DNA of 64,000 bases from a phage: NCBI GenBank assembly GCA_021683455.1, contig GCA_021683455.1_3051.1; one strand, 5' to 3'. The notes beneath the pieces were generated by a model, which saw only the letters and a program-made list of their open reading frames with translations, was not told the DNA's origin and did no database searches. The translations under genes were made by a program, and so were the position numbers. Shown piece by piece: positions 58,001-59,234 of the stretch (the stretch's first letter is position 1; every line of letters begins with the position of its first letter).

Positions 58001-58426
58001 ACAGAAGTTGGCAAAGCAATTGTTTCTCATGGCCATTTAGTTCAGGCGAATGACAGCTATTCAACGTATGTCCGCGATGTTTATGTCCGCTCTGATATTC
58101 GTGTTAAAAAGGACCTAGTTAAATTTGAAAATGCTTCTGAGAAGCTTTCAAAAATTAATGGTTACACTTATATGCAGAAGCGAGGCCTAGATGAAGAAGG
58201 TAATCAGAAATGGGAACCAAACGCTGGGTTAATTGCTCAAGAAGTTCAAGCTATTTTACCTGAATTAGTTGAAGGCGATCAGGATGGTGAAGCTTTACTT
58301 CGTTTGAACTATAACGGTGTAATTGGTTTAAATACAGCTGCAATCAATGAGCATACTGCAGAAATTGCAGAACTTAAGTCAGAGATTGAAGAGCTTAAAA
58401 AATTAGTTAAATCATTGTTAAAATAA
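55097..58426 (+). CDS. 37: long tail fibre distal subunit gp37 with C-terminal intramolecular-chaperone-like domain
   Basis: 1109-aa ORF; C-terminal ~110 aa contain an S-D-x-R-x-K-K-D motif ([12 protein letters not shown]) and a terminal coiled coil ([22 protein letters not shown]) typical of self-cleaving fibre chaperone domains. Confidence 0.9.
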
Positions 58427-58432
58427 AATGAG

Positions 58433-58446
58433 GGGCTTCGGCCCCT
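58433..58446 (+). promoter_or_regulatory. GC hairpin (GGGGC-TTCG-GCCCC) between gene 37 stop and gene 38 start
   Basis: Perfect 5-bp stem with TTCG loop 7 nt after the gene 37 stop and 12 nt before the gene 38 ATG; could attenuate transcription or structure the 37-38 junction. Confidence 0.4.
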
Positions 58447-58457
58447 TGGAGGTTTAT

Positions 58458-59234
58458 ATGGCAGTTGAAGGACCGTGGGTAGGATCGTCTGCAGTAGTTA
58501 ATACAGGACAAAATTGGATGGGCGGCGCGGCCCAACGATTAAGAATGGGCATTCCGTTCTGGATGAGTAATATGATAGGTCGATCTGTTGAAGTAATTCA
58601 CACGCTTGGAGCAGACCATAACTTCAATGGTCAATGGTTCCGAGATAGATGTTTTGAGGCAGGTAGTGCACCTATAGTGTTTAATATCACTGGAGATTTA
58701 GTATCATATTCTAGAGACGTTCCTTTATTCTTCATGTACGGAGATACACCGAATGAATATGTTCAATTGAATATACACGGCGTAACGATGTATGGTCGCG
58801 GCGGGAATGGTTGGGCTGCTGGAGCGATTGGAGCGTCTGACGGTGGTGTATGTATCCAAAATGATATAGGTGGACGCCTACGAATTAATAATGGGGGAGC
58901 TATTGCTGGAGGCGGCGGCGGTGGCGGTGGATATTCGCAAGCCAATAACTGGGCAGGAAAATATGTATGTGGAGGCGGCGGTGGTCGTCCATTTGGTTTA
59001 GGCGGAAATAATGGTGCTCGATGGCCTGGTGGAAATGCTAGCTTAACAGCACCTGGTGCTGGTGGTAATACTGGCCAATATTGGGCTGGCGGTGGAGGTG
59101 AAGTTGGTCAACCAGGTCAATATGCTAATCCAGGTAATGGTTATTCAACACCTCCGACAAATCCTGGTGCTGCTGTAGCAGGATCGGCTCCAACATGGCA
59201 AAACGTTGGAGCCGTATACGGTTCAAGAGTATAA
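58458..59234 (+). CDS. 38: gp38 receptor-recognising adhesin with glycine-rich motifs (T2-type)
   Basis: ORF-track ORF 58428..59234; start taken at ATG 58458 ([13 protein letters not shown]...); glycine-rich blocks ([55 protein letters not shown]). Confidence 0.8.

Follow-up and report, generated by a model that had tools for sequence, protein, structure and literature searches.

A probable T2-type long tail fibre tip in an AR1/PP01-like Tequatrovirus: gp37 with a predicted self-cleaving chaperone and the adhesin gp38

We analysed a 64,000-nucleotide (nt) stretch of phage DNA (NCBI GenBank assembly GCA_021683455.1, contig GCA_021683455.1_3051.1), referred to as the window, at the locus where g37, encoding the distal subunit of the long tail fibre, is followed by g38, encoding a putative adhesin, with a GC hairpin between the two genes. 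Very probably, what this locus encodes is the distal tip module of a long tail fibre of the T2 type, belonging to an AR1/PP01-like Tequatrovirus that infects Escherichia coli O157. A first-pass annotation, made from the letters of the window and its open reading frames (ORFs), had proposed a tip of this kind, and we followed it up with domain, structure and genome searches.

Genes and domains of the g37–g38 locus

The locus comprises the following features.

55097–58426, plus strand: g37, encoding the distal long-tail-fibre subunit of 1109 residues, with its stop codon TAA at 58424–58426
55097–58090, plus strand: predicted mature gp37 subunit, residues 1–998, ending ...DVYVR998, the predicted docking face for gp38
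58091–58426, plus strand: intramolecular chaperone or Peptidase_S74 domain of gp37, residues 999–1109 and stop codon (PF13884, 6F45_A)
58340–58423, plus strand: C-terminal amphipathic helix of gp37, residues 1082–1109, four heptads, predicted central trimeric coiled coil
58431–58446, plus strand: C(UUCG)G hairpin A-GGGGC-UUCG-GCCCC-U, with a core of 6 base pairs (bp) that can be extended to 58429–58448 with G-U pairs
58448–58452, plus strand: Shine-Dalgarno sequence GGAGG of g38, 5 nt before the ATG and conserved in an alignment of 19 intergenic regions
58458–59234, plus strand: g38, encoding 258 residues (Pfam GP38 and Gp38_N)
58458–58577, plus strand: N-terminal attachment domain of gp38, residues 1–40 (Gp38_N)
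58578–59234, plus strand: predicted receptor-binding domain of gp38, residues 41–258 and stop codon, with beta-helix and polyglycine-II sandwich (9V85, 6F45_D, Pfam GP38)

The C terminus of gp37 contains the site YVRDVYVR|SDIRVKKD, in which Ser999 (nt 58091–58093) is followed five residues later by Lys1004 (nt 58106–58108). Residues 999–1058 match Peptidase_S74 (PF13884, 'chaperone of endosialidase'; E = 5.4e-13, 49.5 bits against a cut-off of 22), the last 192 residues, covering tip and chaperone, align to the gp37 fragment of phage S16 (6F45_A, E = 2.4e-45), and the 111-residue tail alone aligns with this fragment from end to end (E = 8.7e-33). The 1109-residue frame, the S-D-x-R-x-K-K-D signature and the C-terminal coiled coil had all been read in the first pass and were recovered here as the ORF, the Ser999/Lys1004 pair and four heptads; the PF13884 and 6F45_A matches likewise favour its assignment of this terminus to the intramolecular chaperones that are cleaved off. 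Weaker matches to Protein Data Bank (PDB) entries belong to the same family and are the MYRF autoprocessing domain 7DC3 and the phage fibre 8JOV; the same sequence search gave no direct match to 3GW6 or 4UW8 at E ≤ 10. Counterparts of gp37 in phages KMB42 and G157lw, whose fibre clusters are 98% identical, are annotated as the long tail fibre distal subunit.

In S16, the last 113 residues of gp37 are an intramolecular chaperone that is autocleaved at DLNVS^SDRRIKK, which exposes the gp38 docking face, and a DVY[IV]R strand docks gp38 (PMC7917993). In pb1 of phage T5, Ser1264 is activated by Lys1269, and the C-terminal helices form a central triple coiled coil, as does the equivalent helix of K1F (PMC4690869). 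The spacing of five residues between Ser999 and Lys1004 is the same as that between Ser1264 and Lys1269 of pb1. The predicted scissile bond of gp37 is therefore placed at Arg998|Ser999, with Ser999/Lys1004 as the putative catalytic dyad, and autoproteolytic release of the chaperone after trimerization, which has been shown for S16, T5 and K1F, would be expected here as well. For T2 and T6, PMC3157838, citing Drexler 1986, states that gp37 undergoes proteolytic processing and carries gp38 as a cap.

Read directly from the sequence, the last 28 residues of gp37 form four a/d heptads, with I, I, I and V at the a positions and H, L, L and L at the d positions, and these C-terminal helices are predicted to assemble into a trimeric coiled coil. 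In a single-sequence AlphaFold2 model of the chaperone domain (mean predicted local distance difference test (pLDDT) 60, predicted template modelling score 0.33), the C-terminal helix was the only confident part (pLDDT 86–91). Across relatives, the S-D-x-R-x-K motif is invariant in T2, T6, AR1, PP01, CAM-21 and 12 of 13 IMG/VR loci, with chaperones of 99–117 residues. In one IMG/VR locus (IMGVR_UViG_2974741249_000001, upstream of 1469), the 3' frame of g37 is open for 128 codons only and the motif was not found there, which may reflect a frameshift or a sequencing error in the contig.

A separate observation concerns the middle of gp37, where residues 400–600 (window positions ~56297–56896) are 63–83% identical to CAM-21 and AR1, compared with 97–100% in the flanks. 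By this pattern, the segment appears to be a recombinational mosaic patch; it overlaps a match to Pfam Gp34_trimer at residues 450–556 (E = 1e-6).

gp38 matches the Pfam family GP38 (PF05268) over all profile positions (1–218 of 218; E = 3.2e-72, 243 bits against a cut-off of 25) and Gp38_N (PF21721) over positions 1–40 of 40 at its residues 1–40 (E = 3.8e-21, 75 bits against a cut-off of 25), and no other Pfam family, including the tail-fibre assembly chaperone, was matched in gp38 at E ≤ 0.01. Residues 37–258 match the receptor-binding domain of PP01 gp38 (9V85, E = 2.6e-138), from which residues 41–258 differ by five substitutions and one single-residue indel (~97% identity), and the full-length protein matches S16 gp38 (6F45_D, E = 1.6e-53). 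On the strength of the ~97% identity to the 9V85 domain and the 6F45_D match, gp38 would be a member of the polyglycine-II sandwich fold. It contains 61 glycines overall, and glycine makes up 33% of residues 112–258, including runs of eight, five and four.

We aligned seven adhesins (window, CAM-21, AR1, PP01, T2, T6 and S16) and found Trp7, Trp20 and Trp35 to be invariant; N-terminal Trp prongs of gp38 plug into the gp37 tip (PMC7917993). In the same alignment, glycine blocks at approximately residues 113–118, 151–157, 172–183, 200–202 and 211–220 are invariant and the sequence between them is variable; the T2-type pattern is five glycine-rich motifs and four hypervariable segments (Trojet et al., PMC3157838). 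For the alignment with T2, T6, K3 and Ox2 that the first pass had suggested, T2, T6, S16, AR1 and PP01 were used. A tblastn search found relatives of gp38 in 876 phage records. In eight of these, identity is 99% or higher and the annotation reads tail fibre adhesin or receptor-recognizing protein; identity to the annotated adhesins of Ec_O157kw and G4507 reaches 99.6%. Taken together, gp38 is best classified by its sequence as a full-length adhesin of the T2/S16/PP01 type and not as a T4-type chaperone, in keeping with the glycine-rich adhesin with variable segments, 258 residues from the ATG at 58458, that had first been proposed.

The program-made ORF list gave a longer, 268-residue g38 from an in-frame ATG at 58428, 30 nt upstream. 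We rejected it and placed the true start at 58458 because the upstream ATG, situated in the flank of the hairpin, is preceded by no Shine-Dalgarno sequence, and because PP01, AR1, PE37, AREG1 and sb2 have ATAAG instead. GenBank record e11/2 (KJ668714) annotates the long form from the upstream ATG, which is probably a mis-annotation. A proline-rich antisense ORF of 60 residues at 58763–58945 (minus strand) was also set aside as the mere complement of the polyglycine run of g38, not a gene. Phage bov9_1 (MT884006) combines the receptor-binding haplotype of the window with an N-terminal attachment domain resembling those of T2 and T6 and with a hairpin of the GGGCC type, an apparent example of exchange between the two gp38 modules.

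Receptor-binding loops and the likely receptor

The receptor of PP01 is OmpC of O157, and the structure of PP01 gp38 (PDB 9V85; mBio 2026, PMC12892980) comes with mapped contacts: crosslinks join loop D (Gly208) and loop E (Tyr230) to loops 5 and 7 of OmpC, and Ala228 contacts the OmpC cleft. According to the same study, PP01 gp38 depends on Tyr209, on Tyr230 (for backbone conformation) and on a hydrophobic side chain at the position of Ala228; infection is lost with A228D or when A228 is deleted, A228V, A228L and deletion of G208 are tolerated, and A228D is lethal in a T2-PP01 chimera. Four loop B residues, Y159, Q161, K168 and Y169, are also important, and for K168 and Y169 this is probably because of lipopolysaccharide (LPS) sugars (PMC12892980). 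In addition, T207I was fixed convergently in PP01 populations selected on O157:H7 (PMC6027323). We took the limits of loops A–E from PMC12892980 and transferred them to the window protein by alignment.

58812–58829, plus strand: loop A, W119–I124, identical to PP01
58938–58967, plus strand: loop B, Q161–V170, identical to PP01, with Q161, K168 and Y169 inside it and the adjacent Y159 kept
59007–59024, plus strand: loop C, N184–W189, identical to PP01
59067–59084, plus strand: loop D, N204-T-G-Q207-Y208-W209, a variant of NTGTGYY in PP01
59127–59147, plus strand: loop E, N224-P-G-N227-G-Y229-S230, a variant of NPGAGYS in PP01 with Asn for Ala228

Relative to PP01, loop D has T207Q, has lost the equivalent of Gly208, keeps the essential Tyr and has Y210W. 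Outside loops D and E, the receptor-binding domains differ at S198A and I254V (PP01 numbering; V253 in the window protein). Among 14 close adhesins, nearly all variation in this domain falls at positions 198, 207–209, 212, 227, 235 and 252–256, and two main haplotypes are seen. The haplotype of the window (A198, Q207, the one-residue deletion, W209 and N227) is also that of Ec_O157kw, CAM-21, Sf23, e11/2 and bov9_1. PE37 combines a PP01-type loop D with N227, and loops D and E are therefore not strictly linked.

With a receptor-binding domain ~97% identical to that of PP01 gp38, for which the contacts are mapped, gp38 is likely to have O157-type OmpC as its receptor; this narrows the OmpA-, OmpC- or OmpF-like range originally suggested. 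Asn227 is present in phages recorded on O157:H7 (CAM-21 and Ec_O157kw), so it is compatible with O157 infection despite the lethal effect of A228D, and fine specificity for OmpC alleles may differ from that of PP01. As a tentative and less likely extension, the shared D/E haplotype could represent a distinct solution to OmpC binding, with an allele specificity that is broader than that of PP01 and AR1 or has moved away from it, perhaps to the OmpC of Shigella or of non-O157 strains, even though it has a polar residue where PP01 needs a hydrophobic one.

It is improbable that the changes in loops D and E have retargeted this T2-type adhesin to OmpA, OmpF, FadL, Tsx or LPS alone. Such a switch would fit the position of T207Q, the loss of G208, Y210W and A228N on or beside mapped PP01 contacts, the abolition of PP01-type binding by A228D and the altered specificity that follows single changes in gp38 loops of Ox2 (cited in PMC12892980). 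Against it, loops A, B and C are as in PP01, loop D retains its essential Tyr and loop E its Tyr, PP01 tolerates the loss of G208, and the same haplotype occurs in phages recorded on O157:H7 (CAM-21, Ec_O157kw) and on Shigella (Sf23). Moreover, identity drops to 50% for T2 and 64% for T6, whose adhesins have other known receptors. Neither of these two phages is described as using OmpC.

Transcriptional context and the intercistronic hairpin

The locus belongs to the long-tail-fibre cluster in the 3' part of the window, with the order g34-g35-g36-g37-g38-t and a Pfam match for every tail-fibre gene tested; g38 lies between g37 and the holin gene t, as in PP01, AR1, T2 and T6.

49376–53245, plus strand: g34, long-tail-fibre cluster
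53254–54369, plus strand: g35, long-tail-fibre cluster
54401–54408, plus strand: exact T4-type late promoter motif TATAAATA, upstream of g36
54432–55088, plus strand: g36 (Pfam Phage_T4_gp36)
59267–59923, plus strand: holin gene t (Pfam Phage_holin_T)
Downstream of t, minus strand: asiA, arn, motA and g52

As one piece of 10.5 kb, the fibre cluster shares 98% DNA identity with vB-Eco-KMB42 and vB_EcoM-G157lw, 96–97% with Ec_O157kw, CAM-21 and Sf23 and 94% with AR1. Because the cluster is 94–98% identical to deposited phages, the source can be assigned by similarity to a well-sampled Tequatrovirus clade whose members were mostly isolated on E. coli O157:H7 or Shigella.

A motif scan found no exact late-promoter motif between 54408 and 59234. 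The motif at 54401, before g36, is the nearest one upstream of g37 and g38, and g38 is therefore probably read from a polycistronic late g36-g37-g38 mRNA, a transcription unit modelled on T4, to which the g37–g38 hairpin would be internal. Between g35 and g36, another C(UUCG)G hairpin, GAGGGAGCCTTCGGGTTCCCTT, precedes a T-run and the motif at 54401 (window 54373–54408). This region resembles a junction of terminator and promoter, which would divide the fibre cluster into one unit of g34-g35 and another of g36-g38. Just downstream of t, the 3' part of the asiA coding sequence (minus strand) contains a 14-bp palindromic hairpin at 59966–59998 with an A-run and a T-rich tail at its sides; by a consensus scan, it may be the terminator of the late t transcript.

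The hairpin between g37 and g38 begins five bases past the TAA of g37 and abuts the Shine-Dalgarno sequence of g38; the first pass had also noted a GC hairpin between the two genes. Its local fold z-score is only -2. Conservation was assessed at 29 loci (window, PP01, AR1, CAM-21, T2, T6, 13 from IMG/VR and 10 further GenBank phages), with stem pairs counted from per-sequence folds, as a MAFFT alignment of 19 intergenic regions set unequal loops out of structural register. At the junction, 28 of the 29 loci have a GC hairpin with a stem of 5 bp or more, in 10 variants with double compensatory changes: pair 2 changes from G-C to C-G, pair 5 from G-C to A-U and pair 6 from A-U to G-C, and the loop reads UUCG, UUAG, CUCG, UUU, AUU or AAC. 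It is thus the structure of the hairpin that is conserved, not its sequence. In the one exception, SYGD1 (MW883059), the frame of g37 extends to 3 nt before the ATG of g38.

The hairpin is not special to g37 and g38. The hexamer CTTCGG occurs 25 times in the window compared with 13.6 ± 3.6 expected (25 was reached in 0 of 100 shuffles), and nine of these sites have pairing flanks with stems of 4–10 bp, eight of them with at least 6 bp. Besides the g37–g38 hairpin, they include the following; those at 4379–4398, 7320–7341, 12318–12333, 23342–23357, 25514–25537 and 30318–30339 have stems of 6–10 bp.

12318–12333: CTTCGG hairpin just before a Shine-Dalgarno sequence
4379–4398: CTTCGG hairpin before a late promoter
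54373–54394: CTTCGG hairpin before a late promoter
25514–25537, minus strand: CTTCGG hairpin before a late promoter
23342–23357, minus strand: further CTTCGG hairpin
7320–7341, minus strand: further CTTCGG hairpin
30318–30339, minus strand: further CTTCGG hairpin

The g37–g38 hairpin is accordingly one of the generic C(UUCG)G hairpins that T-even phages have between cistrons. For T4, such intercistronic hairpins were reportedly described by Tuerk et al. in 1988 (PNAS 85:1364), a paper cited in PMC2811024, and they have the same tetraloop, closing pair, GC stem and intercistronic position as the hairpin in the window. A search of positions 54000–60500 against Rfam gave a single match, at chance level (E = 0.94, 14 bits against a cut-off of 210). 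On the plus strand, no U-run follows the hairpin, which continues as UUGGAGG and so does not resemble an intrinsic terminator on that strand. Most likely, the hairpin would act as a barrier in mRNA stability or processing that also leaves the Shine-Dalgarno sequence of g38 unpaired.

Two other roles were considered. First, the hairpin might tune translation, setting gp38 at about one-third of gp37 by uncoupling initiation at g38 from ribosomes terminating at g37 and by fixing access to the Shine-Dalgarno sequence. The 3:1 stoichiometry of the fibre and the conservation of structure rather than sequence are consistent with this, and in most loci the first G of GGAGG marks the end of the hairpin, with little variation in the spacing between the stem and the ATG region. 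The same type of hairpin is found between unrelated gene pairs, though, and SYGD1 has an intact g37/g38 pair and no hairpin, which makes such tuning doubtful. Second, and still less likely, the hairpin could serve mainly as a transcription terminator for the early (minus) strand, stopping 'anti-late' read-through from the asiA/motA side. On that strand the stem is followed by CATTTTATTT, which a consensus scan scores as terminator-like, and the plus-strand side has no U-run. However, the T-rich tail is the complement of the last Lys codons and TAA of g37, the scan returned 10 terminator-like sites compared with 4.1 ± 2.1 expected, so that single matches are weak, and on the coding strand the sister hairpins are followed by a Shine-Dalgarno sequence or a late promoter, pointing to a role in plus-strand RNA. 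A barrier in the stability or processing of the late mRNA is the role we prefer.

Assembly model and comparison with known systems

From these data and the homologous systems, an assembly pathway can be proposed. g36, g37 and g38 would be expressed from one late mRNA, and gp37 would trimerize through its own C-terminal 111-residue chaperone, as its homologues do, with the terminal helices of the chaperone setting the register of the beta-helical tip as a trimeric coiled coil. Once the tip has folded, Ser999, activated by Lys1004, would cut the Arg998-Ser999 bond in each chain and the chaperone would leave. The three new ...DVYVR ends would then form the docking face into which a single gp38 plugs its Trp7/Trp20/Trp35 domain. 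Structure 6F45 contains three gp37 chains and one gp38 chain, and therefore one adhesin monomer is expected to cap each fibre trimer (3 gp37 : 1 gp38).

At the tip, the polyglycine-II sandwich of gp38, a structure known for a protein with a 97% identical receptor-binding domain, would present five loops. Loops D and E would insert between extracellular loops 5 and 7 of O157-type OmpC, as shown for PP01, and loop B, again by analogy with PP01, would touch LPS sugars. This contact with OmpC and LPS would be the reversible first step of binding and would set host range. The model accordingly predicts that gp38 is present in virions and binds OmpC, and the earlier designation of the locus as a host-range determinant is supported by homology.

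Nothing in the sequence contradicts the assignment to a T2-type tip. Three observations nonetheless call for caution: the AlphaFold2 model of the chaperone is poor (pLDDT 60) and lends the expected fold, an alpha/beta sub-domain with a beta-hairpin tentacle, no independent support; SYGD1, alone among the 29 relatives, has no g37–g38 hairpin, its g37/g38 pair being intact; and loop E has Asn where PP01 needs a hydrophobic residue, so that the contact geometry may differ from that of PP01. A T4-type arrangement, with gp38 as an assembly chaperone absent from virions and the gp37 tip binding the receptor, has in its favour only a gene order common to T4 and T2 and is extremely unlikely given the full-length GP38 and Gp38_N matches of gp38 as its sole Pfam hits at E ≤ 0.01, its ~97% identity to a crystallized receptor-binding domain and the S16-homologous cleavable chaperone, rather than a T4-like needle domain, at the end of gp37.

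What the T2-type tip entails is already known: for near-identical proteins, publications cover the architecture, the chaperone that cleaves itself off, the fold of the adhesin and the map of OmpC contacts, and near-identical genes have been deposited and annotated. The locus would be the primary host-range determinant of an O157-infecting T-even phage, which matters for phage therapy, biocontrol and diagnostics. Natural variation of the adhesin falls on the mapped contact loops D and E, and this allele is thus a ready test case for the PP01-OmpC model.

Compared with known systems, the locus shares with PP01 the gp37 length of 1109 residues, the DVYVR|SDIRVKKD site, the domain plan of gp38, loops A–C and an identical hairpin. 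It differs from PP01 in gp37 (85% identical overall), at ~8 positions of the gp38 N-terminal domain, in loop D (NTGTGYY in PP01, NTGQ-YW here) and in loop E. The deposited O157/Shigella Tequatroviruses KMB42, G157lw, Ec_O157kw, CAM-21, G4507, Sf23 and e11/2 show 96–98% DNA identity over the cluster and 98–99.6% identity in gp38 and have the same D/E haplotype; they differ by one or two residues in the N-terminal domain of gp38 and, for CAM-21 as well as AR1, by the mosaic in mid-gp37.

In S16 (PDB 6F45; Dunne et al. 2018), the gp37 tip is homologous and the C-terminal chaperone is autocleaved; the three Trp prongs, the polyglycine-II sandwich and the 3:1 stoichiometry are also found there. Its gp38 is 51% identical, with other loops that bind Salmonella OmpC, and the scissile Ser is preceded by Ser in S16 but by Arg in the window. 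T2 and T6, studied by the Henning and Krisch laboratories, have the same architecture, with five glycine-rich motifs, four hypervariable segments and the intergenic GC hairpin, and processing of gp37 has been shown for T2. Identity to T2 and T6 falls to 50% and 64%, respectively, in gp38 and to 29–35% in gp37, and the T2 chaperone, at 99 residues, does not have the last two heptads. Finally, the endosialidase-type chaperones of K1F endoNF, T5 pb1 and the GA-1/phi29 appendages have in common with gp37 the Ser-x4-Lys dyad at the start of the domain and, as predicted for gp37, a terminal helix of the trimeric coiled-coil type and release after the trimer has folded. Their sequences are distant, and in gp37, unlike in these proteins, cleavage would also create the docking site for a second protein.

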